A stretch of 15,188 nucleotides of DNA from an uncultured Deinococcales bacterium (GCA_964247135.1 CAXTTL010000117.1:1-15188), one strand, 5' to 3'. Positions 1 to 15,188 are shown, counted from the first letter of the stretch. The notes: generated from the sequence alone by a model not told the origin. Made by a program: numbers and translations.

Positions 1-279
1 GATAGGCTTGAGCCTCGAGCGGCTTGGAGCAACGAAAGTCATCTTGCCTGCAACGCAAGTCATTTTTAAAAATTTACGCCTTGAAAACAACACCGTCTCG
101 AGTTTTGCCTATTCGCACTGGTTGAAACTCAGAATTCCTCGAGAACCTGTGTGGCACTTAAAATTTGCTCAAAATTTAAGTACTTGGTCAGAACTCGAGC
201 GCGATCAACAACGCCGCTCGAAAAAGCAAAAAATTGTTAAGAAACCGCGCAAGCGTGATTTGAAGTCTGCGACGGGCAT

Positions 280-311
280 TTGACACGGAATTCCCAAACT
301 GCGTATAGAAT
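280..311 (+). promoter_or_regulatory. Putative sigma-70-type promoter, probably giving a leaderless transcript of the DUF2207 gene
   Basis: TTGACA at 280-285 and TAGAAT at 306-311, 7 nt before GTG 319, with no Shine-Dalgarno. The -35/-10 spacing is non-ideal (20 nt, or 18 nt to TATAGA). Confidence 0.5.
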
Positions 312-318
312 TAATGTT

Positions 319-2163
319 GTGAAGCCCATACTGCGATTGATTCTGGTTGTGTTGATGCTCTCGGGCATGGCAGCCGCCAAAGATTTTAAGTTCGCCAAAA
401 TCGAACAAGACGTCTACCTTCAAGCCTCCGGTGTGACCCGCGTGGCAGAAACCCGAACCTACGATTTTCAGGGAACGTATCACAACGCCTTTATCACGAT
501 TGATCCAGCCGCAAACGGCACTGTTACCTTTGACAAGGTTGAGGCGATTGACGGCAAAGCCTTTTACGGCTCGAGCGTTGAGGGCAACAAGATCAAATGG
601 CAGTACGACGCCACCGACGAACAACGCACGTTTAAGATCACCTACACCTTGACAAACGAGTTAAAAGTTTCTGACGATGCGGCGCAGTTTGACCGCCAGG
701 TCTTGTATTCAGACCACAAAGACGTAGACCAGTACATCGTGCGGATTCATGCGCCCAAGCCAAACCCAAGTCTGTTTCGGGTTTTCGTTTTTAACACCCA
801 AAGCCGCATCGGTAAACTCGACATCGACACGGCTCGGGGCATCGCCACGATCAACATGAAACCTGTCGGCGAGGGAGAGTTTGTTCGCACTCGGGTCTTC
901 TTGGCACCGGATCAATTCAATGTTCGCAACATCAAAGGCAAGACGTTCTCGAGTTGGATCACGGAAGTCAAAAATGAAACCCAGGGTTTCAGGGATGCCT
1001 CGAGCGCGGCGATCAACCGTGGTTCGGTGGATTCTGGCGGGTTTGCGCCGCCGCCACCACCGCCGCCGCCGTGGCAACAGGGTTTGCCAGTCGTGCCAGT
1101 TTTGTTGCTCGGTGGTTTTGTCTGGACGCGTTTTCAAAAATTTGGACGCGAACCGGTGGTTCAAGACATTGGACCGTACTACCGCGAACCCGCCCAAGAA
1201 ATCGCACCAAGTTATGTGCCGTACCTTTTAACCCAAGGCAACCCGGGCGCGGGTGCGCTCGGTGCGGCGATCAGTGCAACCCTGATTGATTTTACGCGAA
1301 AAGGTTATCTCAGCCTGCTCAACGTTCATCGCAACGGCGTGTTTGGCATTGGCGCGAGGGATGAAACACATTTCAAACTCGAGAAACGCCCGACTGGCAA
1401 GCTCAGCCCGTTTGAAACCGAGATGTGGCAAATCATCGAAGCGGCGCACGGCGGCGACGGGATTCTCAGCCCGAGCGAACTCAAAGCTTACTTTCAACAG
1501 AGCACCAGTTTGGCGAGCACCCTCAGCGCCCTGCCTCGAGATTCGTATGAGCAGCAATACGGTCATCTGCTCGATCAAGCCAGTGAATCGCAAAAAGGTT
1601 GGACGATTGCCGTGGGCATCTTGGGTGCTGTGGTTTGTTTGGGAGCGGCTTTCTTTTTGAACCTGTCGCCAGGAATCTCGGCAAGCTTGGTCGTGGTTGG
1701 TGTCGGCTGCGGGATTTTGACGGCGGTCGCCGGTTCGGTGCTCTCGAAATGGAATGCCGACAAACTCTTAAATGCCCGCAAATGGTTGGCGTATAAAAAA
1801 TTCCTCTCCGACTTTTCGCAAATCAAAACCGCCCCACCCGAACATTTCAAACTCTGGGATTATCATTTTGTTTACGCCACCGCACTCGGGGTCGCCACCC
1901 AATACATTGGCAACGTCAAACGGATTGCCGAGAGCAACCCAGGTTGGGTTCCAGTGCCGTACTGGATGGGCGGCGGAGGCATTGACAACTTTGGCAATGC
2001 CGTCAGCGCTCTGGAAAGCATCAACAGCCTCTCCGACATCGCCAGCAACCTCGGCAACCTGCAAAGTGCACTCAGTGACATCTCGAGCGGGTCGGGCGGC
2101 GGATTTGGTGGCGGTTCAAGCGGCGGCTCGAGCGGCGGCGGCGGAGGAGACGGCGCTTCTTAA
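319..2163 (+). CDS. DUF2207-family membrane protein (signal peptide, extracytoplasmic N-domain, TM segments, Gly/Ser-rich tail)
   Basis: The long ORF 280..2163 probably starts at GTG 319, which gives a signal peptide (MKPILRLILVVLMLSGMAAAKD). Motifs typical of DUF2207: 'AISATLIDFTRKGYL', 'W..YKKFLSDFS', 'LWDYHFVYATALGV' and a C-terminal GGGFGGGSSGGSSGGGGG. It lies next to lemA. Confidence 0.85.
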   Translation: MKPILRLILVVLMLSGMAAAKDFKFAKIEQDVYLQASGVTRVAETRTYDFQGTYHNAFITIDPAANGTVTFDKVEAIDGKAFYGSSVEGNKIKWQYDATDEQRTFKITYTLTNELKVSDDAAQFDRQVLYSDHKDVDQYIVRIHAPKPNPSLFRVFVFNTQSRIGKLDIDTARGIATINMKPVGEGEFVRTRVFLAPDQFNVRNIKGKTFSSWITEVKNETQGFRDASSAAINRGSVDSGGFAPPPPPPPPWQQGLPVVPVLLLGGFVWTRFQKFGREPVVQDIGPYYREPAQEIAPSYVPYLLTQGNPGAGALGAAISATLIDFTRKGYLSLLNVHRNGVFGIGARDETHFKLEKRPTGKLSPFETEMWQIIEAAHGGDGILSPSELKAYFQQSTSLASTLSALPRDSYEQQYGHLLDQASESQKGWTIAVGILGAVVCLGAAFFLNLSPGISASLVVVGVGCGILTAVAGSVLSKWNADKLLNARKWLAYKKFLSDFSQIKTAPPEHFKLWDYHFVYATALGVATQYIGNVKRIAESNPGWVPVPYWMGGGGIDNFGNAVSALESINSLSDIASNLGNLQSALSDISSGSGGGFGGGSSGGSSGGGGGDGAS

Positions 2164-2224
2164 TTTGGGAACGATAATCAATCAAAACGCGTATTGAAAA
2201 ACAGTGGTTTCACAGGAGGAACAC

Positions 2225-2773
2225 ATGGGATGGATTGTCTTATTGGTGATCGTGGTCGGACTCGGAATTGTACTCGTCGGCATTTTCAACAACATCACCA
2301 GCCTCGAGAATCGCGTGGCGAATGCTTTGTCGCAAATTGATGTGCAATTAAAAAAGCGCGGCGACCTGGTGCCAAACCTGGTCAACACCGTCAAAGGTTA
2401 TGCCGCACACGAAAGCGGCGTGTTTGAAACCGTCACCAAAGCCAGGTCGATGCTGCAAACCGCCAACACCGTCGAAGAAAAAGCCGCCGCCTCGAGCGCC
2501 CTTTCCGGCGCACTGCGCACGGTTTTTGCGGTCGCCGAAAATTACCCGCAACTCAAAGCCGACACCAGCTTTTTAAACCTTCAATCCGAACTCTCAGACC
2601 TTGAGGGCAAAGTCGCCTATTCCAGGCAGTTTTACAATGACACTGTTTTAATGTACAACAACTCGATCACCACCATTCCTGGCGTGTTTTTGGCGGGTCC
2701 AATGAACAAAACCAAAAAGAGCATGTTTGAAGCCAGCGAGGGTGATCGTGCCGTACCAGAAGTGAAGTTTTAA
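2225..2773 (+). CDS. lemA: LemA family protein
   Basis: N-terminal TM helix, 'IDVQLKKRGDLVPNLVNTVKGYAAHE', 'AVAENYPQLKAD..F..LQ.EL...E.KVAYSRQFYND.V..YN'. SD AGGAGG at 2214-2219 selects ATG 2225. Confidence 0.95.
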   Translation: MGWIVLLVIVVGLGIVLVGIFNNITSLENRVANALSQIDVQLKKRGDLVPNLVNTVKGYAAHESGVFETVTKARSMLQTANTVEEKAAASSALSGALRTVFAVAENYPQLKADTSFLNLQSELSDLEGKVAYSRQFYNDTVLMYNNSITTIPGVFLAGPMNKTKKSMFEASEGDRAVPEVKF

Positions 2774-2786
2774 ACAAGCGAATAAC

Positions 2787-2827
2787 AAAATCTCGAGCAT
2801 CAAAATACTGATGCTCGAGATTTTTTT
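2787..2827. terminator. Bidirectional intrinsic terminator built from CTCGAG-containing repeats
   Basis: AAAATCTCGAGCATCA (2787-2802), loop AAATAC, TGATGCTCGAGATTTT (2809-2824), with a T7 run at 2821-2827. It lies between convergent genes. Confidence 0.85.
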
Positions 2828-2839
2828 GATGCTCGAGAT

Positions 2840-3370
2840 TTAAGCTTTTTTCTCGTCGTCTTTGGCTGCGTCTGTCGCTACTTCTTTGGCTTTGTCGCCG
2901 CCACCGAGCAAACCGCCCAACAAGTTCTTCGCGCCTTCAAACACACCCTTGGCTGCACCTTCGACGGCGTGAACAACATCTTCGGCAACGTCTTTGGCTT
3001 TTTCAAAGGTGTCTCCAGCAACTTCGGCGGCTTTGCCTGCCAGGTCTTCGGCGGCGTGTGCGGCTTGACCAGCGGCGTTGCTGGCTTTGCCCATCAAGTC
3101 CCCAGCCACCTCTTTGGCTTGTCCAGCAACTTCACCCGCCTTGCCTGCCAAGTCACCGGCAACATCTTTGGCTTTGTCGGCTGCGCCCGCTGCTGCTTTT
3201 GCGGCAGAATCTGCCATATTGCCTGCTGTTTTGGCGGCAGAATCGACGGCTCCCGCTGCGGCATGTGAGGCATTTCCAGCCACGTCGGCTACTTTACTGG
3301 CGGCAGTGTCCGCTGCGATTGTGGCGGTTTTGGCTGCGGCGTCTGCGGCATTTTTGACTTCGTCGGACAT
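2840..3370 (-). CDS. Ala/Lys/Asp-rich repeat protein (LEA/apolipoprotein-like amphipathic helical repeats)
   Basis: 176 aa with imperfect 11-mer repeats (AKDVAGDLAGK, AKEVAGDLMGK, AAHAAEDLAGK, AAEVAGDTFEK). SD AAGGAG precedes ATG 3370, and a TAGAAT -10-like box lies at 3423-3428 (minus strand). Confidence 0.8.
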   Translation of the reverse strand: MSDEVKNAADAAAKTATIAADTAASKVADVAGNASHAAAGAVDSAAKTAGNMADSAAKAAAGAADKAKDVAGDLAGKAGEVAGQAKEVAGDLMGKASNAAGQAAHAAEDLAGKAAEVAGDTFEKAKDVAEDVVHAVEGAAKGVFEGAKNLLGGLLGGGDKAKEVATDAAKDDEKKA

Positions 3371-3462
3371 GATGATCTCCTTGTTAAATACTTGAACTCA
3401 TCTGGCATTGCCAAACTCGACCATTCTACGACTTCGAGCCGTGAAAAGTTCCAGGTGAAAGA

Positions 3463-6400
3463 TCAATGGCTCGAGTGTTGCCAATCTTGTAAACTCGAAA
3501 CGCCCAAATCAGCATCTTTGGCGTGTTTCAGCGCCTCGGCAATCCAGGTCGCCGCCTCGAGCGTGGTGTAGTGCGCCGTGCCATTCTCGAGCGCTTGGCG
3601 CAGATACTTGGATTCGGTCAGGTCAATCACCAAGTCTGGCAGGGGAAACTCGAGGTTCGCGGTTTCCAGGGTTGTCACAGTCCAACCGCTCGATTTGAGA
3701 CTTTGGGCGACCGGCTCGAGGTTTGCACCGATGAGAACCGCGCTGCCAGTCAGGGGCAGTTTGACATTTGCACCCAACTGGGCGCGGTAGTAGGCAATGT
3801 AAGGATCGCGGTCGATGCCCATGCTCTCACCCGTGGATTTCATTTCGGGTCCAAGTACCGGAATCACGCCCGCAAACTTCAGGAATGGCAAATGAACCTC
3901 CTTGGCGCTGTAAAAATTGGGAACCGGTGCAGTCGTGAAATTCAAATCCTCGAGCGTCTTGCCCGTGGCAATCAATGCCGCGTATTTTGCCAGCGGATGC
4001 CCGATGGCTTTGGAAACAAATGGCACGGTGCGGCTGGCTCGAGGGTTCGCTTCAAGCACGAAGACCTGTCCCTGATAAATGGCATACTGGCAGTTCATCA
4101 AGCCTTTCACGCCAATCTCGAGCGCCAGTTTTTTGGTGTGGGTGTGAACTTCCTCGAGCAATTTGGCTGAAAGGTGAACGGGCGGCAGCACGCAGGCGCT
4201 GTCGCCCGAGTGAATGCCTGCGGCTTCGATGTGCTCCATCACGCCAGCGATCACGACATTTGTACCGTCGCAAAGGCAGTCCACGTCCAACTCGAGCGCC
4301 CCCTCGAGGAATTGATCGAGCAGAATACTCGGGCTGCCTTCAACGGCGCTGTAAACGTCCGCCAGGTAGGTTTCGAGTTCGGATTCGCTGCGCACCACCC
4401 GCATGGCGCGACCGCCGAGCACGTAACTCGGGCGTGCCATCAGCGGATATCCCAGGCTCGAGGCGAGGGTCATGGCTTCGCTGGCATTGTTTGCCACTGC
4501 GCCTTTGGGCTGAGGAATGCCCAGTTGGGTGCAGAGTTGATTGAACTCGAGCCTGTCCTCGGCTTTGTGAATCGCGCTCGGTGATGTGCCAATAATCGGA
4601 GCGCCCGCCGCCTCGAGCGGTTTGGCGAGTTTCAGCGGTGTCTGCCCGCCGAGTTGCACGATCACGCCGACGGGTTTTTCGTGCTCGATGATGTTCATGA
4701 CGTCTTCAAAGGTCAGCGGCTCGAAGTACAGTCGGTCGGCGGTGTCGTAATCGGTCGAAACCGTCTCAGGGTTGGAGTTGACCATGATGGTCTCATAGCC
4801 CGCCTCGCGCAGCGCCCAGACCGCGTGAACCGTGGCGTAATCGAACTCCACGCCCTGCCCGATGCGGTTTGGACCGGAACCCAAAATCACAATTTTGGGT
4901 TTATCGGTGGGGCGCACTTCATCCTCCCATTCGTAACTCGAGTAATGGTAGGGCGTGTAGGCTTCAAATTCGGCGGCACAGGTGTCCACGGTTTTGTAAA
5001 CGGGCAAGGCTTTGGCGGTTTTGCGCAAGCTCCGAACCTCGAGTTCGGTATGCCCAACAATCTCACCGATTCGGGCGTCGCTCAAACCCAGGCGTTTGAT
5101 CTCGCGCCAGATTTCGTATTTCCAAGTTTCAATGTTTCCCAAGGTTAAGATTTCTTTTTCGGCTTCTAGCACCTCGAGCAACTGATACAAGAACCAGCGA
5201 TCAATCTTGGTTTTCTCGAACAGATCATCCACACCCATGCCGCGCCGCAACAGCTCGAGCACCGCCATGAAACGTTTTGGGGTCGGGATCAACAATTGCT
5301 CGAGCTGCGCCAAGTTCATGTCCTCAAAACCGCCGCGAATGTCGGATTCGAGGCTGCGGAAGGCTTTCATAAAGGATTCCTTGAAGGTTCGCCCAATTGC
5401 CATGACCTCACCGACGCTGCGCATTTGCGTGCCGAGGGTTTCGGGCGTGCCTGGAAATTTCTCAAAGGCGAAACGCGGAATTTTGGTGACCACGTAATCG
5501 ATGCTCGGTTCAAAACTGGCTGGCGTGCTTTTGGTGATGTCATTCGGCAGTTCGTCGAGGTGATAACCCACCGCCAGCAGCGCCGCAATTTTGGCTATCG
5601 GAAAACCCGTGGCTTTGGATGCCAGCGCACTGCTTCTCGAGACCCGAGGGTTCATTTCGATCACGATGATCTCGCCGTTTTTTGGGTTGACCGCAAACTG
5701 AATATTGCTGCCGCCCGTGTCCACGCCGATTTCGCGGATGATGGCGAGGCTGGCGTCGCGCAGTTTCTGATAGTCTTTGTCCGATAAGGTTTGCGCCGGC
5801 GCGACCGTGATGCTGTCGCCCGTGTGAACGCCCATCGGGTCAAAGTTTTCGATGCCGGTGATGATCACCACCGTGTCGTTGTGGTCGCGCATGACCTCGA
5901 GTTCAAACTCTTTCCAGCCGAGCAAGCTGCGCTCGAGCAGCACGGTATGAACGGGGCTGTCATGAAGCCCTTGGGTGATGATTTTGCGCAACTCGAGTTC
6001 GTCGTAAGCGATACCGCCACCCGTGCCACCGAGCGTAAAACTGGGGCGGATGATTGCGGGATAACCAATTTGGGTTACAAACTCGAGCGCTTCCTCGAGG
6101 CTGCCGATGGTTTTGCCCTGCGCGGTTTTGATGCCAATTTTGTGCATGGCTTGCGCGAACAACTGACGGTCTTCACCTTTTTGAATCGCCTGCACGTTGG
6201 CGCCAATCAATTCCACGCCGTACCTCTCGAGTATGCCAGCCTCGGCAAGCTCCAAGGATCGGTTTAATGCGGTCTGCCCGCCCAAAGTCGGCAGCAGCGC
6301 ATCGGGTCGCTCGAGTTCGATGACTTTGCTTAAATACTCCAAGGTTAATGGCTCCAGGTAGGTGCCGTCGGCGAGGTCTGGGTCGGTCATGATGGTGGCA

Positions 6401-6552
6401 GGGTTGCTGTTTACCAGAACGACTTGATATCCCGCATTTTTCAGGGCTTTGACGGCTTGGGTTCCCGAATAATCGAACTCGGCGGCTTGCCCGATTTGAA
6501 TCGGTCCCGAACCAACGATCATGATTTTTTTGAGGTCTTCACGTTTTGGCAT
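3463..6552 (-). CDS. carB: Carbamoyl-phosphate synthase large subunit
   Basis: '[33 protein letters not shown]', two ATP-grasp halves ('[24 protein letters not shown]', '[16 protein letters not shown]', '[16 protein letters not shown]'). SD AGGAG at 6558-6562 selects ATG 6552. Confidence 0.98.
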
Positions 6553-6576
6553 CTTCACTCCTGATGATGTGCGTCA

Positions 6577-6623
6577 ATTGTATAACCCGTGCAAATATAC
6601 CCGAAAAACTGCATAAAAATACA
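6577..6623 (-). promoter_or_regulatory. carB-proximal -10 element with tandem ARG-box (ArgR)-like operator
   Basis: TACAAT on the minus strand at 6577-6582. TGCATAAAAATACA (6610-6623) matches TGMATWWWWATKCA at 13/14. A weaker box, TGCAAATATACCCG (6590-6603, 10/14), is offset by 20 bp. Confidence 0.55.
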
Positions 6624-6645
6624 AGCCCCCAAATTTGGGGGCTTG
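6615..6645 (-). terminator. Intrinsic terminator upstream of carB and downstream of the envelope-protein gene
   Basis: Perfect inverted repeat CAAGCCCCC-AAATTT-GGGGGCTTG (6622-6645), followed on the minus strand by TATTTTT. Confidence 0.85.
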
Positions 6646-6675
6646 CGAAAGTCCTATCTCATAACCCAAGTGAGC

Positions 6676-6703
6676 AGTTTAGCAGGTCTGGCGCTGGAAT
6701 CAA
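6676..6703 (-). promoter_or_regulatory. Putative promoter pointing towards the terminator and carB
   Basis: Minus-strand TTGATT (6698-6703), a 16-nt spacer, then extended -10 TGc-TAAACT (6676-6684). Confidence 0.4.
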
Positions 6704-6739
6704 TAGGCTTGACGGCATTGCGAGTTTATACACTCGAGC

Positions 6740-7495
6740 TTATGGTTTAAAAGCGCCCTCGATGCCCAAAGAACCTGGTTTGAGGGCGATCAAGCCGCGC
6801 AAGCCGACCACAAAGCCGCCGTTTGTAAAGGCGTTCGAGAACAAGTTGTTGTAACCCGCGTAAAGCCCCAACTTAAATTGCGGCACGATGGTGTAGTACA
6901 AACCGCCGATCAAGCTGTAGCTCGCATTGGCGGTGCTGTTGTTAAAACCAGCCTCGCCCCGAGCAAACAATTCAATGCTTTTGACCGGCTCAAAAAACAG
7001 ACCGACGGTGCCGTTCGCGCCGTAAAACACCGCGCCAGCCGAAAAGTTATAACCAAATTCGCCCGATGCGGCTGCCAGGAATTTCAAGTTCGGCATAATC
7101 ACATAATTGATATTGATGCCAGCATTCACATCAGCCGCGACAGCGACGGCAGGAACAATCGCCACGTCAACGCCAACCCCAATTGGCACATCAACGAACA
7201 AGCTCGAGGTTTTGACAATGCTGACCACGTATTTCGCGCCGACCCGAGAAGCCAAAGAAAACGTGCCGACGCCCGTGTTGGGGTCAATCACAAAGCGTGG
7301 GCTGAGGCTTGCGCCAACAAAAAGTCTTGGCATGACTTCGATGCTGTAATTGAGGCTCGCACCAATCGAGAAATTAAATTGATTGCCTTGAAACACGGGC
7401 GCATCGACCGCCGCCGAAAATCCGTCTGCGAAGGCACTCGAGCTTAAACCAATTGCAATGAGGGCGACCAAGGATTTTAAGATGTTGCGTTTCAT
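6740..7495 (-). CDS. Secreted beta-strand-rich protein, probable outer-membrane beta-barrel of unknown family
   Basis: SD AAGGAG precedes ATG 7495. Signal peptide MKRNILKSLVALIAIGLSSSAFA|D. The mature chain is made of alternating Gly/hydrophobic strands with aromatic ends (GASLNYSIEVMP, GININYVIMP, GGLYYTIVP). Confidence 0.7.
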   Translation of the reverse strand: MKRNILKSLVALIAIGLSSSAFADGFSAAVDAPVFQGNQFNFSIGASLNYSIEVMPRLFVGASLSPRFVIDPNTGVGTFSLASRVGAKYVVSIVKTSSLFVDVPIGVGVDVAIVPAVAVAADVNAGININYVIMPNLKFLAAASGEFGYNFSAGAVFYGANGTVGLFFEPVKSIELFARGEAGFNNSTANASYSLIGGLYYTIVPQFKLGLYAGYNNLFSNAFTNGGFVVGLRGLIALKPGSLGIEGAFKP

Positions 7496-7763
7496 GTATT
7501 GCTCCTTTTGGGCATCAAACGTTCCCGTTGAACGTTTACTTATGTGTTGCACCCTAGGGTACAAAGACCACAAACTGATGCCAAAGAGATGAAGAATTCA
7601 TCTCAAAAATGAGTATCTCGAGAATCATGAGGAAATCCCCAAGCAGCCGAAGCTGTGTCACACGTCGCAGCTCAATTCAATTCGGGCTTGCGTGAAGGTT
7701 TCTTTAAACTTGTGACGCTGACGAAAATGACCCGTTCGGCTCGAGTTCGCCTGCGAATCGGGG

Positions 7764-7769
7764 TACACT
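7764..7769 (+). promoter_or_regulatory. -10 element of an apparently leaderless guaA transcript
   Basis: TACACT lies 7 nt before ATG 7777 and no SD is present. This arrangement is common in Deinococcota. Confidence 0.65.
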
Positions 7770-7776
7770 AGCCGTC

Positions 7777-9303
7777 ATGAGTTTGGTCATCCTCGATTTT
7801 GGTTCTCAATTTACGCGTTTGATTGCGCGTCGTTTCCGTGAGTTAAATGCTTTCAGCGTGATCTTGCCAGGCAATGCCAGCCTGGAAGAAATTCAGTCGC
7901 ACAACCCTCAGGGCATCGTCCTTTCGGGGGGTCCCGCCAGCGTTTACGACGCCGACGCGCCCGTTCCAGCAGCGGGCGTCATGGCACTCGAGTTGCCAAT
8001 TTTGGGCATCTGTTACGGAATGCAGTATTTGGTGTTTGCCGGTGGCGGCAAAGTCGAACGGATTGGCACTCGAGAATACGGCAAAGCCGTGCTCGAGTCG
8101 TATTCCGGCGATTTGTTCGCGGGTGTGAGCGGCGAATTTGTCGCCTGGATGAGCCATTCGGACACGCCGACCAGTTTGCCCGAAGGTTATTTCGTCTCTG
8201 CCAGCACCAGCGACACGCCAGTCACCGGAATCGAAAATCCGAGCCTCAAACGTTACGGCATTCAATTTCACCCGGAGGTCGTGCACACGCCCAAAGGCGC
8301 GAAATTGCTCGAGAATTTCCTGGGCATCTGCAATATCACCCGCGACTGGACGCCCGCCCATATCCTCGAGAATCTGATTGCGGATGTCAAAGCCAAGGTT
8401 GGCACGGACAAAGTGCTGCTGGCGGTTTCAGGTGGTGTGGACTCGAGCACCCTGGCATTGCTCTTATCCAAAGCCATTGGCTCGCAACTCAGTGCGGTTT
8501 TTGTCGATCACGGTTTGCTGCGCCTTAACGAACGCCAAGAGGTCGAAAAGGCGCTGCGTCCACTGGGCGACGAAAACCTGATCACGCTCGACACCAAAAA
8601 AGAATTTTTCGCCGCGCTCGAGGGGGTCAGCGAACCCGAAGCCAAACGCAAAATTGTCGGACGAGAATTCATCCGCGCCTTCGAGCGCGAAGCCAGACGG
8701 CTCGCCTCGAGCGGCTTTAAGTGGCTGGCACAAGGAACCTTATACCCCGACGTGATCGAAAGTGCGGGTGGCACCGGCGCAGCCAACATCAAGAGCCATC
8801 ACAATGTCGGCGGGCTGCCCGACGACCTCGAGTTCAGCCTGCTCGAGCCTTTCCGAACGCTGTTTAAAGATGAAGTCCGCGAGATTGCCAAACTCCTCGG
8901 GCTGCCCGAAGAAATTCGCACGCGTCACCCGTTTCCAGGTCCTGGCTTAAGCATTCGCGTGCTGGGCGAAGTCACTCCAGAAAAAGTTGACATCTTGCAG
9001 CGCGTGGACAATATTTTTATCTCGAGTTTGCGCGAATTTAACTTGTACCACGAGGTTGCCCAAGCCCTGGCGGTGTTGACGCCCGTTCAAAGCGTCGGCG
9101 TCATGGGCGACTACCGCACGTACTCGTACTTGGTGGCGCTCCGAGCCGTGACCAGCGCCGATTTCATGACCGCCGATTGGGCGAGGTTGCCCCAAGATTT
9201 TCTCGAGGTCGTGGCAAACCGAATTGTCAACCTTGTCCCAGAAGTCAACCGTGTGGTGTATGACATCACCAGCAAGCCTCCAGCCACGATTGAATGGGAA
9301 TAA
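7777..9303 (+). CDS. guaA: GMP synthase (glutamine-hydrolysing)
   Basis: '[15 protein letters not shown]', '[10 protein letters not shown]', 'QFHPEV', 'SGGVDSS', '[11 protein letters not shown]', 'RHPFPGPGL', '[16 protein letters not shown]'. Confidence 0.99.
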
Positions 9304-9337
9304 AATTCGAGCGGTTTTTTAGTTGAAACTCGAGCGT

Positions 9338-9370
9338 AAAAAAAGACCACCGATTTTAGGTGGTCTTTTT
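9338..9370. terminator. Bidirectional intrinsic terminator between guaA and the PEGA gene
   Basis: AAAAAGACCACC (9340-9351), loop GATTTTA, GGTGGTCTTTTT (9359-9370), between convergent stop codons. Confidence 0.88.
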
Positions 9371-9388
9371 GGGTTTTGATGCTCGAGA

Positions 9389-9826
9389 TTAATGCTGTAA
9401 ATGACTTGGGATCAACTTTGTTGCCCAGTTTGGCAACGGATCGTTGTTCATCAGTGACGGTGTAAGGTCAACATTTACTTGTGTCGTATCAAATTCGTAC
9501 CACGCGCCGGTGGCGGCATCGATCACGACGGGAAACAAGCCGCCCAAAATGTCCAAGACAATCCAAAGCGTGCCGACATGGTTGTTCAAGACAATGTTTT
9601 GATCTTTTCGCCCCGCGAGGCGAATGGTGATGTTGTAGCTGCGATTGGTTCGCAATGAGATTTTTGCGGGTGTCGTTCCCAACACGTTTCCGTCAACCAG
9701 AATTTGTGCACCTTGCGGATTGGAATTGATAAAGACACCCTGCGAGTCACCTTTAAAAATCAAGGCACAACTCGAAGTTGATGCGATCAAGGCGATGAGT
9801 GCGACGAACATCAACAGTTTTTTCAT
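9389..9826 (-). CDS. PEGA-domain-containing putative lipoprotein
   Basis: Signal peptide ending TSS|C (lipobox-like), PEGA signature 'INSNPQGAQILVDGNVLGTTP', and C-terminal hydrophobic 'LWIVLDILGGLFPVVIDAATGAWY'. SD GAGGGGG upstream. Confidence 0.8.
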   Translation of the reverse strand: MKKLLMFVALIALIASTSSCALIFKGDSQGVFINSNPQGAQILVDGNVLGTTPAKISLRTNRSYNITIRLAGRKDQNIVLNNHVGTLWIVLDILGGLFPVVIDAATGAWYEFDTTQVNVDLTPSLMNNDPLPNWATKLIPSHLQH

Positions 9827-9856
9827 AATAGCCCCCTCGAGCTGCTGCTCGAGATG

Positions 9857-9865
9857 AGTATAGCA
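9857..9865 (-). promoter_or_regulatory. Extended -10 promoter of the PEGA gene
   Basis: Minus-strand TGc-TATACT about 30 nt upstream of ATG 9826. Confidence 0.55.
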
Positions 9866-9954
9866 ATGGGTTTGGGTTAGATGTAAAAACCCTCAAAAAA
9901 ATCTTTTGGAAACGCAATTTTTGTACTTTGGTTTTTGATGCTCGAGTCAACATC

Positions 9955-9989
9955 AAAAGTTCCAAACCCGAGCCTCGAGTTTGGAACTT
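9955..9989 (-). terminator. Probable terminator of the rimP-nusA-ylxR-infB operon
   Basis: Minus-strand AAGTTCCAAACTCG-AGGCT-CGGGTTTGGAACTT (one G-U pair) ending in a short U run, 22 nt after the infB stop. Confidence 0.65.
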
Positions 9990-10011
9990 AGGTTTTTTAA
10001 GCTGTACGGCT

Positions 10012-11871
10012 CTAAGCTTTGACTTCAACCGTTTCGGTGACCACAATCAAATCGCCAATTTCAAATTCGTCAAAATTGGAAACATTGATACCACACTCGA
10101 AACCAGTTAAAACTTCCCGTACATCGTCCTTGAAGCGCTTCAGACCAGAAATCTGACCTTTGGCAACCTCTTTGCCCTTGCGCATGACGCTGGCTTTGCC
10201 CGAACGCATGATCTTGCCCTCGAGCACATACGAACCGGCAATGTTGCCGCCCGCTTTGGGCACTTTGATGATCTGCCTGACTTCGGCGCGACCGACAAAT
10301 TTGTCTTCAAACACGGGTTCGATGGTGCCGCGAATCATTTTTTTGACTTCGTCGATCATTTCGTAAATGATGCGGTAGGTCTTGATTTCAACTTTTTTGT
10401 TGTCGGCAATTTTTTGCACACCAGCCGATGGCGTGACCGAAAAGCCCATGATTTTGGTGTCAACCGCCGTCGAAGCCAAAAGCACGTCGCCCTCGGTTGG
10501 AGCGCCGATGCCCGCGAACAAAATATGCACCTCGACATCGTCGTTGTTCTCGCGCAACAAAATGCCCTCGAGCGCCTCGAGCGAACCTTGGGTATCGGCA
10601 CGCAAGATCAAATTGACCTGGCGTTTTTCGACTTTGACCTCGCCGACCTTGCCCAGCAAATCCTCGATGCTCATGCCAGCCGCAGCGCCCTTGCCTTGCC
10701 CGACGGCTGCCTCGCGCTCGGCGTCGTCGGCGGCATCGACACGGGTTTCTTTGCGACCCGCAATGATTTCCCTGGCATCGTGTTCGTTTTTGGCTCGCTT
10801 CACGAGTTCACCCGCGATAGGGGTTTGCGAGAAACCCAGCACTTGCACCGCCACACCAGGTTTGGCGCTGGTGATGCGGTTGCCGAAGCTGTCGGTCATG
10901 GCGCGAACCTTGCCGTACAATTCGCCGACCACCAAGAAATCGCTGACCTCGAGCGTTCCGCCCTGCACCAACACGGTGGCGAGGACTCCCGCCTGCTTGT
11001 CCACTTTGGCTTCAATAATCACACCAGCCAGTTCGCCGTCGGGATCGGCGCGTAAATCCTCTAGTTCGGCGACCAAACTGAGATTCTCGAGCAGATCGTC
11101 CACGCCCTGTCCGGTGCGGGCGCTGATCTGCACCACAATCGTGTCGCCGCCGTAAGCCTCTGGAATCAATGTGGCGTTGGTGAGGTCTTGCATGACCTTG
11201 TCGGGGTTGACGCCCGCAATGTCAATTTTATTGATGGCAACTACAATTGGCACTTTGGCGGCTTTGGCGTGCGCAATGGCTTCTCGGGTTTGCGGCATGA
11301 TGCTGTCGTCGGCGGCGACCACAATCACGGCGATGTCAGCCACCTGGGCACCTCGAGCGCGAATGCTGGTAAACGCTTCGTGCCCTGGTGTATCAATGAA
11401 CACGATCTTGCCTCGAGGCGTGTTCGCCTCGAACGCGCCGACGTGCTGCGTAATGCCGCCCGCCTCTTTGCCAGCAATGTTGGAATTGCGAATGTAATCG
11501 AGCAAACTGGTTTTACCGTGATCGACGTGACCCATGATCGTGACTACAGGCGGACGGTGCGGGATTTCTTTGGCGGGTTTGACAGGCTCAGTCTTGACCG
11601 TCTCAGTCTTGACCAGTTCTGGCTCGCTTGAATCCGTGACACTCGAGCTTGGAGCTGGTTTCTCACGATCTGAATCGACTGGCGATCCAACAACGCTGGC
11701 ACCGCTTTTTAACTCATCTTCGACCAGACCCTTCACAATTTCTGCCGTGTCATCATCAATGGTGCTCGAGGCGGTCTTGGCATCGACGCCCATTCCGTGC
11801 AACAACTCGAGCATTCGTTTACTTTCAATGCCAAGTTCTTTGGCAAGCGCATGAATTCGTACTTTCGACAT
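10012..11871 (-). CDS. infB: Translation initiation factor IF-2 (short form)
   Basis: IF2_N 'KVRIHALAKELG', G-domain 'RPPVVTIMGHVDHGKTSLLDYIR', 'DTPGHEAF', 'NKID', C-terminal 'LKRFKDDVREV..GFECGI'. SD GGAGG at 11877-11881. Confidence 0.99.
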   Translation of the reverse strand: MSKVRIHALAKELGIESKRMLELLHGMGVDAKTASSTIDDDTAEIVKGLVEDELKSGASVVGSPVDSDREKPAPSSSVTDSSEPELVKTETVKTEPVKPAKEIPHRPPVVTIMGHVDHGKTSLLDYIRNSNIAGKEAGGITQHVGAFEANTPRGKIVFIDTPGHEAFTSIRARGAQVADIAVIVVAADDSIMPQTREAIAHAKAAKVPIVVAINKIDIAGVNPDKVMQDLTNATLIPEAYGGDTIVVQISARTGQGVDDLLENLSLVAELEDLRADPDGELAGVIIEAKVDKQAGVLATVLVQGGTLEVSDFLVVGELYGKVRAMTDSFGNRITSAKPGVAVQVLGFSQTPIAGELVKRAKNEHDAREIIAGRKETRVDAADDAEREAAVGQGKGAAAGMSIEDLLGKVGEVKVEKRQVNLILRADTQGSLEALEGILLRENNDDVEVHILFAGIGAPTEGDVLLASTAVDTKIMGFSVTPSAGVQKIADNKKVEIKTYRIIYEMIDEVKKMIRGTIEPVFEDKFVGRAEVRQIIKVPKAGGNIAGSYVLEGKIMRSGKASVMRKGKEVAKGQISGLKRFKDDVREVLTGFECGINVSNFDEFEIGDLIVVTETVEVKA

Positions 11872-11889
11872 CCGAACCTCCGAGGGCTT

Positions 11890-12237
11890 TTAACCCTGAA
11901 TAACTTGAGTGACTGAATTTATCTCATAAGCGGGTTTGCTTTCTTGAGAATGATTTTTTTGCCATACCTGAAGTGCTTCAACCAATTTTGAAGCCTCGCC
12001 TCGAGCAAACTTTCCCAAACCTTTGATGCCCATGCACTCGAGTTTGTCTTTGCAGACGTACCAACCGCGTCCCTCGAGTTTGCGAAATGTATCGGGTTCC
12101 AAACCGTTTGGTCCTTTGGCAATCCGAAGCAATTCGGCTTGAGGTCGTCTCGCTCGGCACGCCACGCAAGTCCGCACCGGAATTCGTTTTCCAGTCGCGT
12201 CGTGTTGTTTGTGTGGCGCTCGAACGTTGCGACCCAT
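11890..12237 (-). CDS. ylxR: YlxR/DUF448 family RNA-binding protein (RnpM-like)
   Basis: 'PVRTCVACR......ELLRI', 'GRGWYVC....C', and its conserved position between nusA and infB. Confidence 0.9.
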   Translation of the reverse strand: MGRNVRAPHKQHDATGKRIPVRTCVACRARRPQAELLRIAKGPNGLEPDTFRKLEGRGWYVCKDKLECMGIKGLGKFARGEASKLVEALQVWQKNHSQESKPAYEINSVTQVIQG

Positions 12238-12239
12238 GA

Positions 12240-13433
12240 TTATTCCTTTTGACCCTCGGCTCGAGCGTCGATCACTTCGCCGTCCGGCGTGGCGCTGAAC
12301 AGCGCCGCGAACTTGTCGGCGGCGGCACTCGGACGCGCCGTTGCGCCCCCGTCCTCGGCGGCGTCGCGCATGGCGGCGTCGAGGTCTGAAACGCTGGCGC
12401 TCTCTTGCAGGTCAATTTTAAAGCCAGTCAGTTTCGCCGCCAGACGCACGTTTTGACCGCCCTTGCCGATTGCCAGCGACAACTGATCGCTGGTCACCGT
12501 GACGGTGGCTTCCTTGCCGTCCACGTCAACCTCAATGCTGCCAACTTTGGCTGGCGAGAGCGAGTTCTTGATGAATTCCCTGGGGTTGGCGTCCCACTGA
12601 ATCACGTCCACGCGCTCGCGCCCAATTTCGCTGGTGACGGCTTGAATGCGGTTGCCACGATGACCGATGCAGGCACCAATCGGGTCAACATTCGAGTTTC
12701 TCGAGAAAACCGCGATTTTGCTGCGCTGCCCCGCCTCACGCGCGATGGCTTTGATTTCCACCGTGCCGTCATTCACTTCAGGCACTTCTTGCTTCAACAG
12801 GTGCAACAGCAGTTCTGGCGCGGCTCGAGATGCCAAAATGCTCGGACCTCGGTTGCCCATCTCCACGGTTTTCAAATACACCTTGGTTCTCGAGCCTGAA
12901 GCCAGCCGCTCGCCAGGAATTTGTTCTTTCGGCGGCATGATCGCCTCGCCGCGCCCGAGTTCGACAAAGGTGTTGCCCTTGTTGTCCTGACGGGCGACCT
13001 GCGCCGTAATGACCTCGCCCTGACGGTCCTTGTACTCGTTGTAAACAATGTTGCGCTCCGCCTCGCGCATTTTTTGCGTGACCACTTGCTTGGTGGTCTG
13101 AATGGCGATACGGCTGAACGACTCGGGCGGCACCGGAAATTCCATCTCCATGCCCAACTCCACACTCGGGTCAAGCTCGAGCGCATCGGCAAGTGAGATT
13201 TGCTTGTCGGCATCCTCGACCTTTTCGACCACCTCACGAATGATCAAAACCTCGAGTTCGCCCTTTTCGGCGTCAAGGTGAACCTCGACGCGCTTGTCAG
13301 GTTCGACGTTGCGCGTGTACGCCTGTTGCAGCGCCTCTTCAAATGCCGTGATGAGCTGCATTTTGTCCATCCCTCGAGCCACCGCGATTTCCTCGAGCGC
13401 ACTGACAAATTCTCTCTGCTGGTCTTTGTTCAT
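12240..13433 (-). CDS. nusA: Transcription termination/antitermination factor NusA
   Basis: 'FSRIAIQTTKQVVTQKMREAER', S1 domain, KH domains 'AREAGQRSKIAV', 'DPIGACIG.RG.RIQAV..E', 'QLSLAIGKGGQNVRLAAKLTG'. Confidence 0.99.
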   Translation of the reverse strand: MNKDQQREFVSALEEIAVARGMDKMQLITAFEEALQQAYTRNVEPDKRVEVHLDAEKGELEVLIIREVVEKVEDADKQISLADALELDPSVELGMEMEFPVPPESFSRIAIQTTKQVVTQKMREAERNIVYNEYKDRQGEVITAQVARQDNKGNTFVELGRGEAIMPPKEQIPGERLASGSRTKVYLKTVEMGNRGPSILASRAAPELLLHLLKQEVPEVNDGTVEIKAIAREAGQRSKIAVFSRNSNVDPIGACIGHRGNRIQAVTSEIGRERVDVIQWDANPREFIKNSLSPAKVGSIEVDVDGKEATVTVTSDQLSLAIGKGGQNVRLAAKLTGFKIDLQESASVSDLDAAMRDAAEDGGATARPSAAADKFAALFSATPDGEVIDARAEGQKE

Positions 13434-13448
13434 ACAAACTCCTCAACT

Positions 13449-13895
13449 TTAACGATGCGAATCTGGCCACTCCGCCAAAAATGCGCGAATTCCTGCTATC
13501 GGCACGGTTTCGATCACGCCACCATCCAACTCGAGCGTCACACTGTCTGGCGTGACCGCCACGATTTTGCCAATGATTGAAGCATCCATGCGTTTGACCT
13601 TGATTTTCAAACCTGTGTGCCGTTCAAAATGCCGTACCGTAATGAGCGGTCGCTTCGGACCTGGCGACTCGAGATCGAGCTTGTACTCGCCCTGAATTGG
13701 GTCCAGATGGTCGAGTTCCAAGCCCAGCACGTTAGAAGCCCGCGTCAGGTCATCCACCGTGACTGGCGTTTCATCAATCCGATCAATCCGCACAATCAAC
13801 GACGTGCTGACCCGTCCACTCGAGACGATCACTTCCAAAACCTCATAGCCGAGCGGCTCGAGCACATCGCGGGCAATGTCTTCCAATGCGTTCAT
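13449..13895 (-). CDS. rimP: Ribosome maturation factor RimP
   Basis: 'VTVDDLTRAS......LD..DPI.GEYKLDLESPG..RPL....HF'. SD GGAGG at 13900-13904 selects ATG 13895 rather than the ORF-track start at 14063. First gene of the nusA operon. Confidence 0.95.
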   Translation of the reverse strand: MNALEDIARDVLEPLGYEVLEVIVSSGRVSTSLIVRIDRIDETPVTVDDLTRASNVLGLELDHLDPIQGEYKLDLESPGPKRPLITVRHFERHTGLKIKVKRMDASIIGKIVAVTPDSVTLELDGGVIETVPIAGIRAFLAEWPDSHR

Positions 13896-13964
13896 TTCAC
13901 CTCCAATTGACTGCTCGAGGTTTTCAAACCCGAGCCTAGAAACCTTCCCATCGAGGCTTTTTCC

Positions 13965-13997
13965 ATAAGAACGGGGCGGGTTCAAAAACCCGCCCCG
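13965..13997 (-). terminator. rimP leader hairpin / attenuator-like weak terminator
   Basis: Perfect 11-bp stem CGGGGCGGGTT (13972-13982) / AACCCGCCCCG (13987-13997) with a 4-nt loop, followed on the minus strand by the imperfect U tract TTCTTAT. It lies between the promoter and the rimP start. Confidence 0.7.
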
Positions 13998-14027
13998 GCT
14001 CAAAGTCGAGGGAACAACAACAGCGGT

Positions 14028-14056
14028 AGTATACAACTTGAACCGTTTATACTCAA
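14028..14056 (-). promoter_or_regulatory. Sigma-70-type promoter of the rimP-nusA operon
   Basis: Minus-strand TTGAGT (14051-14056), a 17-nt spacer, TATACT (14028-14033). Confidence 0.75.
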
Positions 14057-14102
14057 GGGGCATTCAAAAAAGCTCGGGAAAACACTTTAAGGAGAAGCCA
14101 TC

Positions 14103-14489
14103 ATGCGATTTGAACACACCGCCTACAACGTTCCAGAACCCGTAGCCCAAGTCAAATGGTACGTCGAACATGTTGGCATGAAAATCCTGCGCGAGAACCT
14201 AACCGCGCCGTTCATTCACTTCATTTCAGACAGCGAAAACCGCTTGACGCTCGAGTTTTACCACAACCCAAACGGACAGATTCCAAATTACTGGGACATC
14301 AGCGTTTGGACGCAACACATTGCATTCACCTCGAGCGATATTGCCGCCGACATTGCCAGGCTCGAGGCGGCAGGTGGGAAGCAAGAAGGCGAAGCCGTCC
14401 ATTTTCCGAATGGCGATTCGGTGGTGTTCGTGCGTGACCCTTGGGGGTTGACGCTGCAACTGGTGTACCGAAGCGCACCTTTGTTTTAA
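14103..14489 (+). CDS. VOC (glyoxalase/bleomycin resistance/dioxygenase) family protein
   Basis: 'FEHTAYNVPE......WY.EH.GM', 'LEFY', 'QHIAF...DI.A...RL.AAG', 'FVRDPWG..LQL'. SD AAGGAG at 14089-14094. Confidence 0.92.
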   Translation: MRFEHTAYNVPEPVAQVKWYVEHVGMKILRENLTAPFIHFISDSENRLTLEFYHNPNGQIPNYWDISVWTQHIAFTSSDIAADIARLEAAGGKQEGEAVHFPNGDSVVFVRDPWGLTLQLVYRSAPLF

Positions 14490-14496
14490 GACACGT

Positions 14497-15188
14497 TTAG
14501 TGCCAAAGCGGCGTTTCTCGAGTTTTTTGGATCAACCAAAAACTGCTGACCAAACATAGCGCAATCGTGATGATTCCAGCCTCGAAGCCAAACGCGCCAC
14601 CCGTGAAGAATTCAGCCCCCTGAATACGTGGTTGGATCAAGCTCTTAAACGTATTGCCTGACACCGCCACACCAAAAATTGGTCCCTGCATAAAGTTCCA
14701 AAAAACATGAACGCCAGTCAACAACCACAAATCCCTGGTCCAAACAAACAATGACCCAAGCGCCACGCCAGCCAAACCGACGGCGACGGCACCAATCAAG
14801 GTTGCGTTGGTGTTGCCCAAATGCAAAACACCAAAGAGCATTCCGCTGAGCGCCAACGCCCAGCCTGTTCCAATCGATTTCTCGAGCGTTAGAAACAAGA
14901 TACCGCGAAACAAGACTTCCTCAAATGCTCCTGCGAAAACGAGCAAAGCAAAAGCACCAGCCAAAGCACCCGCATCAAAAGAAATGGTTCGCACCGAATA
15001 CCAGCCCGCCAGTGCAGCAATTAACACAATACCACTGTACAAAATTACTCCTGCCACTGCACCAAAAAGTAAGCCTCGAGCCGGTTTTATCGGCTTTAAG
15101 CCATTTGTTGTTGCCTGCAACCAGTTGATTTTGCCAAGTCCCAGAATTGCGCCAATGCCAACCATCAAGCCAAGTGCTCGAGTGACCA
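14497..15188 (-). CDS. CPBP (CAAX protease/Abi, Rce1-like) intramembrane metalloprotease, 5' end outside the window
   Basis: 'FEEVLFRG', 'FGVLH', 'HVFWN', 'TGGAFGFEAG' and multiple TM helices. The frame stays open to the window edge. Confidence 0.92.
   Translation of the reverse strand, partial: VTRALGLMVGIGAILGLGKINWLQATTNGLKPIKPARGLLFGAVAGVILYSGIVLIAALAGWYSVRTISFDAGALAGAFALLVFAGAFEEVLFRGILFLTLEKSIGTGWALALSGMLFGVLHLGNTNATLIGAVAVGLAGVALGSLFVWTRDLWLLTGVHVFWNFMQGPIFGVAVSGNTFKSLIQPRIQGAEFFTGGAFGFEAGIITIALCLVSSFWLIQKTRETPLWH

Follow-up and report, generated by a model that had tools for sequence, protein, structure and literature searches.

The closest described counterparts of the element examined here are the highly iterated palindromes (HIPs) of cyanobacteria. 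HIP1 (GCGATCGC) has been known for about thirty years (PMC13756078) and still lacks a settled function. It is reported to be conserved inside and between open reading frames (ORFs) (PMC5861425), to co-vary with DNA-transfer machinery (PMC13756078) and, when methylated, to raise transformation and recombination in Synechococcus (bioRxiv 10.1101/2024.09.10.611283). We investigated the hexamer CTCGAG in a 15,188-bp stretch of DNA from an uncultured Deinococcales bacterium (GCA_964247135.1, CAXTTL010000117.1:1-15188), hereafter the window, which is contig C117 of a 5,091,702-bp assembly of 386 contigs with a G+C content (GC) of 52.7% (genome G000). The word resembles HIP1 and the alternate HIPs in being a short GC-rich palindrome that is hyper-abundant across a whole lineage, in all reading frames and in noncoding DNA, and in being conserved between related genomes beyond codon constraint with no evident gene-level role (for the HIPs, as described in excerpts of PMC5861425 and PMC4390886). 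It differs from HIP1 in that it is a hexamer and not an octamer, has another sequence, belongs to another phylum and occurs at ~6.7/kb, against the ~1/kb given for HIP1 in part of PMC4390886. The one-mismatch words of CTCGAG are not enriched as a class, whereas variants of HIP1 are reported to be conserved. HIP1 and the alternate HIPs are each accompanied by a cognate orphan methyltransferase, whereas none was found for CTCGAG in our searches of the family that carries it. The word here, CTCGAG, is not HIP1 proper, and CGATCG has only 47 copies in G000.

An exact recount of the window returned 99 copies of CTCGAG, the first at 14-19 and the last at 15177-15182, the same figures as the rough manual count of the sequence-only reading, including its division into 82 coding and 17 intergenic sites. 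Dinucleotide-preserving shuffles of the window (n = 200) had a mean of 3.17 copies (standard deviation 1.74, maximum 10), and none of the 200 reached 99. With coding DNA defined by our own crude ORF-based gene calls and one further ORF of 115 aa, there are 5.9 sites/kb in 13,956 coding bases and 13.8 sites/kb in 1,232 noncoding bases. The gene content is that of ordinary core genes (DUF2207, LemA, CarB, GuaA, PEGA, IF-2, NusA, RimP). All three frames are used, and the number of sites per gene ranges from 0 to 27.

The excess extends to the whole genome. We counted 33,925 sites in G000 (6.66/kb), which makes CTCGAG the commonest of all hexamers, with a zero-order observed-to-expected ratio (O/E) of 24.8. 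The ~25-fold excess first estimated for the window therefore stands as a zero-order ratio, and its size depends on the control: a codon-aware coding control gives 7.2-fold and noncoding DNA 32.7-fold. Every one of the 386 contigs contains the word (2.56-11.28/kb), only 6 of 1,930 called genes of at least 900 bp lack it, and the zero-order O/E is 22-28 across all GC classes. A genome-wide process had been proposed, and the presence of the excess on every contig and in every genome of the family bears this out. Sites are spaced nearly at random (mean 148, median 108, coefficient of variation 0.96, largest gap 2,644), and short-range periodicity was limited to period 3, with no helical period. 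It was also observed that a spacing of exactly 6, which would make the avoided word GAGCTC, is absent, and that a spacing of 8 is rare (11 cases against ~90-130 for neighbouring spacings).

A maximal-order Markov correction had been put forward as a check and was run; it lowers the O/E for CTCGAG in G000 to only 1.24. This value is an artefact of the model, because the subwords themselves carry the excess: CTCGA is followed by G in 87.6% of cases, and 62% of all TCGA lie inside CTCGAG. We rejected the correction as a test, since pentamers and TCGA are mostly built from CTCGAG itself. The fall in the ratio was thus obtained, but TCGA outside the word stands at ~1.05 of expectation, and the model was judged unfit here.

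Only the exact hexamer is enriched. In noncoding DNA of G000 the perfect word has an O/E of 32.7, the one-mismatch class 1.09 and the two-mismatch class 0.88. The one-mismatch words that had been pointed out at 217, 3433, 9306, 9967 and 13929 are all present in the window, and the check for enrichment or depletion of such words gave a divided answer: the class as a whole is not enriched, the three transition neighbours are raised (TTCGAG 2.04, CCCGAG 2.20, CTTGAG 1.65) and the transversion neighbours lie at 0.23-0.91. Raised transition neighbours of this kind are expected where a large stock of perfect sites gains and loses members by mutation. Near-cognate words gain no credit. Such sharp recognition would be more characteristic of restriction-type enzymes than of nucleoid proteins or regulators. 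If the ratio of the perfect to the average one-off noncoding word is equated with e^S in a simple equilibrium model, the scaled advantage or conversion bias S would be ln(~30), or ~3.4 per site.

The bases around the core vary, in agreement with the earlier view that the hexamer itself is the unit. Flank bias is weak: 36-39% of sites have G at -1 and 35-43% have A at -3; GCTCGAGC is 44-fold over expectation and CCTCGAGG 6.8-fold. We rejected a dispersed repeat element, such as a repetitive extragenic palindrome (REP) or a miniature inverted-repeat transposable element (MITE), as no conserved sequence extends beyond the core: the commonest 13-mer that includes it accounts for 41 of 13,664 noncoding half-sites. 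The top noncoding 13-mers genome-wide are of the form TTTGA[GAT]GCTCGAG, each in <0.3% of half-sites. A longer flank, TTTTGATGCTCGAG(A/T), recurs at intergenic sites of the window (2806-2821, 2824-2839, 9374-9391, 9933-9946).

Protein coding does not explain the excess, as had been argued from the window. For G000 as a whole, with our own crude ORF calls based on codon usage, called genes had a CTCGAG density of 6.63/kb, DNA outside them 6.84/kb and the short spacers between them 8.85/kb, so that noncoding DNA is as dense or denser. Of the copies inside genes, 17,042 begin at codon position 1, 3,915 at position 2 and 6,147 at position 3. Five synonymous-codon shuffles within each gene, which leave the protein unchanged and preserve that gene's codon usage, itself already distorted, gave 3,726-3,816 sites (mean 3,763), against 27,104 observed. 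Leu-Glu has the highest O/E of all dipeptides in the proteome (2.36), and 17,042 of its 21,985 occurrences (77.5%) are written CTCGAG. For the other two frames, the word is carried in 42% of [SPTA]-R-[VADEG] contexts and 49% of X-S-[SR] contexts. We also compared 78 pairs of orthologues with other families (28,357 aligned residues), which contain 434 Leu-Glu in G000 against 291 in the partners. Only 102 of 367 motif-coded Leu-Glu are also Leu-Glu in the partner, and the rest are mostly one-residue neighbours (LA, LD, VE, LR, IE). These Leu-Glu, frame and orthologue results show that the pressure acts on DNA and has altered proteins.

To place the genome, we compared IF-2, by which two Deinococcus species, at 58-63% identity, are the nearest named genomes and everything else is at or below 49%; this agrees with the Deinococcota-like origin first suspected. 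The genome belongs to a family of 19 Deinococcales genomes in five genera (f1; completeness 57-94%, 18 of 19 incomplete), whose complete member, G011, is a single 5.09-Mb contig with GC of 60%. A comparison across relatives had been called for, and it showed the excess to be family-wide: all 19 genomes carry 4.3-6.8 CTCGAG/kb (with rounded genome sizes), against 0.03-2.9/kb in 12 genomes from four other families of the order. The reversed word GAGCTC has at most 25 copies in 16 of the 19. One of the other families, f3, avoids CTCGAG, with 128-457 copies in 4.2-4.8 Mb (0.03-0.1/kb). The lower-density f1 members are G008 and G011 (4.3 and 4.6/kb), with 12 and 14 sites in carB against 17-30 elsewhere, and G008 tolerates GAGCTC at 568 copies. 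Four public runs of one study contained only ~1/20 of the sampled words, and their contigs, ~86-90% alike, come from relatives.

Counts need to be read against composition. Nine genomes of other families with GC of 58-69% have a zero-order O/E of 0.1-8.2 (3.7-8.2 without the f3 genome), and, the depleted f3 genome aside, 1.6-2.6 times the shuffle expectation, with genes taken as crude stop-to-stop ORFs. GC-rich viral contigs picked for three clustered sites have, among the matches listed, 5-7 sites/kb at ~2 times the shuffle expectation. Since these viral and other-family counts stand at about twice the shuffles, a high count of CTCGAG alone is nothing unusual in GC-rich DNA. The family is distinguished by its excess over codon-aware controls and its noncoding excess, at moderate GC. 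In 400 kb of G011 the density is 4.83/kb, the O/E 14.9 and the excess 5.5 times the shuffle expectation. A scan of viral contigs for three-site patterns returned none resembling the family among at least 120 stretches.

We then considered how the sites evolve. An alignment of G000 with a congener (G005) covers 259 kb at 85.5% identity, with third codon positions 72% identical. CTCGAG was conserved at 1,258 of 1,589 coding sites (79.2%, against 46.4% for all hexamers), which ranks it second of 1,602 hexamers in coding DNA, and at 155 of 219 noncoding sites (70.8%, against 42.5%). The codons concerned were retained far more often within the word than elsewhere (CTC 87.5 vs 54.4%, GAG 87.1 vs 65.5%, CGA 74.8 vs 49.3%, TCG 84.9 vs 65.0%); the same test was used for HIP1 with the same result, as set out in part of PMC5861425. 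Site sharing between the two genomes has a Jaccard index of 0.70, and single-base losses or gains are usually transitions (87, 95 and 69 cases at the three half-site positions).

Wider comparisons showed turnover. In a three-genome alignment of 22.5 kb, 89 sites were common to three genomes, 59 to two and 39 to one. Sites shared by two genomes were changed in the third in 39.9% of cases, against 60.7% for hexamers generally. Of 47 changes in columns with a one-off word common to two genomes, only 6 produced CTCGAG. The carB gene across 15 genomes has 59 site columns, of which 1 is occupied in all 15 and 19 in at most two genomes, and the pattern is a mosaic that often does not follow genus. 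Sites are kept above background yet continually lost and remade at a stable density. From this retention and turnover it follows that the force still acts today and is no relic.

Density was also checked in regions where it might be expected to differ. The rRNA genes of G000 had no match in the assembly, and G011 was taken instead. Its 23S rRNA gene, of 2,933 nt, is nearly bare, with a single site compared with 8 and 10 in its flanks of 1.5 kb; this answers the proposal to compare density in rRNA. The 66 tRNAs predicted in G000 with aragorn contain 10 sites in 5.1 kb, within 8 of the tRNAs. Density around genes is flat at 5.4-8.4/kb, save for the first 30 nt that follow stop codons, where it reaches 12.2/kb. 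Terminator stems with the palindrome in each arm, such as the one at 2787-2824 of the window, account for part of this rise.

The longest stretches free of CTCGAG in G000 (1.5-2.6 kb) are mostly sharply bounded AT-rich islands with GC of 21-40% (Table 1). Among their ORFs are a fusion of reverse transcriptase and trypsin-like protease, two ATPases (one AAA_21 and AbiEii-like, the other AAA_16) and a Wzy-type ligase; several others have no family. The islands are likely acquired DNA with defence genes. Some contigs of normal GC were observed at about half density (2.6-3.7/kb; C42, C75, C137, C78, C112, C289). C42 has HNH endonuclease and helicase genes, and C75 has a one-strand block of large ORFs; for two of the low-density contigs the only PHROGs matches were to helicase and HNH proteins, apart from one weak match to terminase, on C75. 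A large prophage-like protein of C75 had no match among viral contigs. These low-density contigs may be mobile elements partly adapted to the host.

The features found here that characterise HIPs are a many-fold excess, use of all frames and of noncoding DNA, conservation above background and a whole-lineage trait. Excluded or very unlikely as causes are composition and codon usage, an assembly artefact, a repeat element and a restriction target that is merely protected, and for this reason we consider a fixation bias for the exact hexamer. Our preferred interpretation, to which we give a probability of about 45%, is that CTCGAG is a HIP-type iterated palindrome kept at about one per 150 bp in the resident DNA of the family by an ongoing site-specific fixation bias, and is read as a mark of resident DNA. 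Because dependence on the six-base palindrome is all-or-none, the agent would be a dimeric protein whose specificity is like that of a restriction enzyme: a methyltransferase, or else a reader that nicks or does not cleave. On the analogy of HIP1, the sites probably mark resident DNA for recombination, repair, transformation or nucleoid organisation, and each site would be weakly favoured. We lean towards a mark that is read because of the HIP1 parallel, the effects of methylated HIP1, and the contrast between saturated resident and bare acquired DNA. The bolder version, which we find rather doubtful, is an independent second HIP-type architecture outside cyanobacteria, with a reader or repair system beyond the known CTCGAG methyltransferase, XhoI and Vsr families, that would mark resident DNA every 150 bp, drive conversion or recombination towards the mark and have rewritten ~12,000 dipeptides.

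Two things count against a mark read by a dedicated protein: the missing agent and the high turnover. About 1/4 to 1/3 of sites differ between congeners, so single sites are dispensable, and conservation above background does not separate selection from biased repair. As for the agent, homologue and Pfam searches found none responsible in the family, 18 of whose 19 genomes are incomplete. The XhoI nuclease family (PF04555) was found in 0 of the 17 family genomes searched, and Vsr (PF03852) in 0 of 19. Methyltransferases linked to XhoI-type nucleases in sister families were tried as probes and rejected, as their matches in the family were generic ones to the catalytic motifs and included no close homologue. 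The search covered five Pfam methyltransferase families, with PF01555 and PF02384 in G000 and five other genomes and PF07669 and PF02086 in those five others only, and no orthologue common to all was found among them, several of the enzymes having undefined specificities. No PF01555 enzyme was found in the complete genome G011. Every methyltransferase we followed is patchy: of 17 genomes searched, G000, G002 and G007 have a PvuII-like N4 enzyme and G010 a fragment of it, and orthologues of the HaeIII-like enzyme, the C207 type, the 693-aa N6 type and the D12-class type occur in 4, 5, 3 and 7 of 19. The cytosine-5 methyltransferases of the five genera are only 27-35% alike. A correlation with a CTCGAG methyltransferase had been proposed; in these searches no gene that would support the methylation version of the idea was found. 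The expectation that the responsible gene lies outside the window agrees with what we found, as no window product resembles a methyltransferase or nuclease.

Several enzymes of G000 were examined as candidates and rejected. The HaeIII-like and PvuII-like methyltransferases and the Eco29kI- and MvaI/BcnI-type pairs (Table 1) have as their expected targets words that are avoided, not CTCGAG, and these are among the most avoided in the genome (CAGCTG 15 copies, GGCC O/E 0.02, CCGCGG 11 copies). Both pairs were missed by the codon-usage-based gene caller, and for this reason they look recently acquired. The C207, D12-b, 693/798-aa and 466-aa alpha types were set aside as patchy or of undefined specificity. 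The 466-aa protein (C4:28577-29977, L085:475-1875, minus strand) has a DPFCGTGST motif with TSPPY ~190 residues later, and we take it to be an amino-methyltransferase with alpha-class motif order. Its counterpart in G005 is 86% identical and a relative in G009 24%, and no PF01555 match to it was seen in G011. A D12-class gene at C320:2119-2988 of G000 has an in-frame TGA, with orthologues of 76-81% in six other family genomes.

Nearly all palindromes other than CTCGAG were observed to be avoided to an extreme degree. Hexamer palindromes with O/E <0.2 number 36 of 64 in G000, 37 in G005 and 24 in G011, the latter two profiled from 400-kb samples. In the 5.09 Mb of G000 there are 0 copies of GAGCTC, 1 of GGGCCC and 3 of CGGCCG, and CTAG has an O/E of 0.07. 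The profiles of G005 and G000 have a Spearman correlation of 0.94.

The strongest alternative is a non-adaptive drive, in which a sequence-specific bias of mismatch repair or gene conversion converts one-mismatch words to CTCGAG and restores mutated sites, the sites themselves being functionless. Elhai proposed a short-patch ratchet of this kind for HIP1, as outlined in part of PMC4390886. Such a drive fits the enrichment of the perfect word only, the place of transition neighbours as the commonest partners of lost and gained sites, the high turnover at stable density and the near uniformity of density over genes and GC classes. A drive that overrides protein sequence is also easier to accept than 34,000 separately useful sites. 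Polyploidy, known in cultured relatives, would help repair or conversion drive. An established case of sequence-specific repair bias that shifts the frequency of short words is Dcm/Vsr in E. coli (CCWGG/CTWGG), but there the effect is small, and our searches of the family found neither Vsr (0 of 19 genomes) nor a cytosine methyltransferase that is conserved. TTCGAG and CTTGAG, the products of deamination, are raised, whereas a Vsr-type system would deplete them, and the few changes to CTCGAG at shared one-off columns (6 of 47) likewise speak against a drive. We consider it a possible explanation, at odds clearly below even.

Uptake could also spread a word, if the competence machinery preferred DNA bearing CTCGAG, in the manner of the DNA uptake sequences (DUS) and uptake signal sequences (USS) of Neisseria and Pasteurellaceae. 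Those are likewise lineage-wide words that saturate resident DNA, intrude into coding sequence and form inverted pairs at terminators, and the bare acquired islands, the density just past stop codons and the motif pairs in terminator stems of the present family fit this picture. Cultured relatives are naturally transformable. The known uptake sequences are 9-12 nt long, asymmetric, not palindromic and present at ~1/kb, so ~10 times rarer. A six-base palindrome every 150 bp with a weak flank preference is a different regime. HIP1 is now argued to act in transformation, in excerpts of PMC13756078 and bioRxiv 10.1101/2024.09.10.611283. On balance we regard uptake as an improbable origin of the excess.

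CTCGAG is also the target of XhoI and PaeR7I, and it might simply be a tolerated restriction-modification target whose sites are protected by methylation. XhoI-family enzymes circulate in sister families: nucleases with adjoining methyltransferases occur in three f4 genomes (G021, G033, G045), of which G021 is not depleted in CTCGAG (1.7/kb), and a pseudogene with two stops occurs in an f2 genome (G031). No such nuclease was found in the 16 genomes of f3 searched, although f3 avoids the word. The targets of such enzymes are normally avoided, as in f3, whereas in f1 the word is amplified and neither the nuclease, in the 17 genomes searched, nor a close form of the linked methyltransferases was found. 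Protection lifts avoidance but creates no 25-33-fold excess, and this account is very improbable. A by-product of codon usage (CTC, GAG, CGA, TCG), of a liking for Leu-Glu or of TCGA richness could appeal to the low Markov ratio and to the raised counts of GC-rich relatives and viral contigs, but it is refuted for this family by the noncoding excess, the shortfall of shuffles that keep each gene's own codon usage, TCGA at expectation outside the word, the far better retention of codons inside it and a Leu-Glu excess that is derived relative to orthologues, and we give it next to no credence.

The features of the window and the other loci are collected in Table 1. The hairpin after the LemA gene has a predicted fold of -23.9 kcal/mol (z -9.2), and 0 of 200 shuffles were as stable; a third site beside it, at 2832, lies within a repeat of the arm sequence. 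The site at 9382 sits in TTTTGATGCTCGAGAT, and the same flank is found again at 2806-2821 and 2824-2839. Rfam had no match in the window, and no methyltransferase- or nuclease-like genes were seen among its gene products.

Table 1. Positions of CTCGAG sites and genes in the window, of AT-rich islands free of the word, and of the modification enzymes considered in G000
Feature	Location	Strand	Remarks
Array of 99 exact CTCGAG	14..15182	.	82 in ORFs, 17 between; coordinates and shuffle expectation 3.17
Four noncoding sites upstream of DUF2207 gene	14..199	.	14, 97, 138, 194
DUF2207 membrane-protein gene	280..2163	+	7 sites, frames 0/1/2 = 1/1/5
LemA gene	2204..2773	+	2 sites
Terminator-like hairpin after LemA	2787..2824	+	CTCGAG in each arm (2792, 2814), then U-run
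176-aa ORF, no Pfam family	2840..3370	-	0 sites
carB	3463..6558	-	27 sites (8.7/kb), frames 22/1/4; site matrix for 15 genomes of the family
Noncoding site between carB and 277-aa ORF	6733..6738	.	
Two noncoding sites upstream of guaA	7617..7745	.	7617, 7740
guaA	7777..9303	+	12 sites, frames 8/1/3
Two noncoding sites after guaA	9329..9387	.	9329, 9382
PEGA-domain ORF	9389..9826	-	0 sites
Four noncoding sites between PEGA gene and infB	9836..9979	.	9836, 9848, 9941, 9974
infB	10012..11871	-	10 sites, frames 6/2/2
115-aa ORF between infB and nusA	11890..12237	-	3 sites
nusA	12240..13433	-	8 sites, frames 3/3/2
rimP	13449..14063	-	5 sites
Two ORFs (128 aa on +, 223 aa on -)	14103..15168	.	3 sites each
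CTCGAG-free AT-rich island	C13:4757-6745		
CTCGAG-free AT-rich island	C13:11892-14536		
CTCGAG-free AT-rich island	C70:14167-16418		
CTCGAG-free AT-rich island	C1:102560-104482		
CTCGAG-free AT-rich island	C4:51524-53437		
CTCGAG-free AT-rich island	C20:7985-9673		
HaeIII-like C5 methyltransferase	G000 C14 (locus L088)		with upstream partner gene
PvuII-like N4 methyltransferase	G000 C36 (locus L082)		
Eco29kI-type pair	G000 C178 (locus L089)		
MvaI/BcnI-type pair	G000 C189 (locus L081)		

A literature search, outside whose reach lay supplements and most subscription journals, returned no report linking CTCGAG with the term highly iterated palindrome and none of a CTCGAG excess in Deinococcota. 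The excess in this family is apparently unreported, and the closest known kind is the cyanobacterial HIP family. New here are the other phylum, the shorter word, a density ~6 times higher, a measurable footprint in proteins and no obvious cognate methyltransferase. The HIP cases found in the literature, as far as the excerpts cited here go, are all cyanobacterial, so that their correlates (two methyltransferases, competence genes and polyploidy) are inseparable. A second, independent case would allow them to be separated, and a gene or property common to both lineages would be the prime suspect. In practice, the CTCGAG excess will distort binning, codon models and substitution models. For the genomes of this family, the word is also a sharp marker of resident versus acquired DNA.

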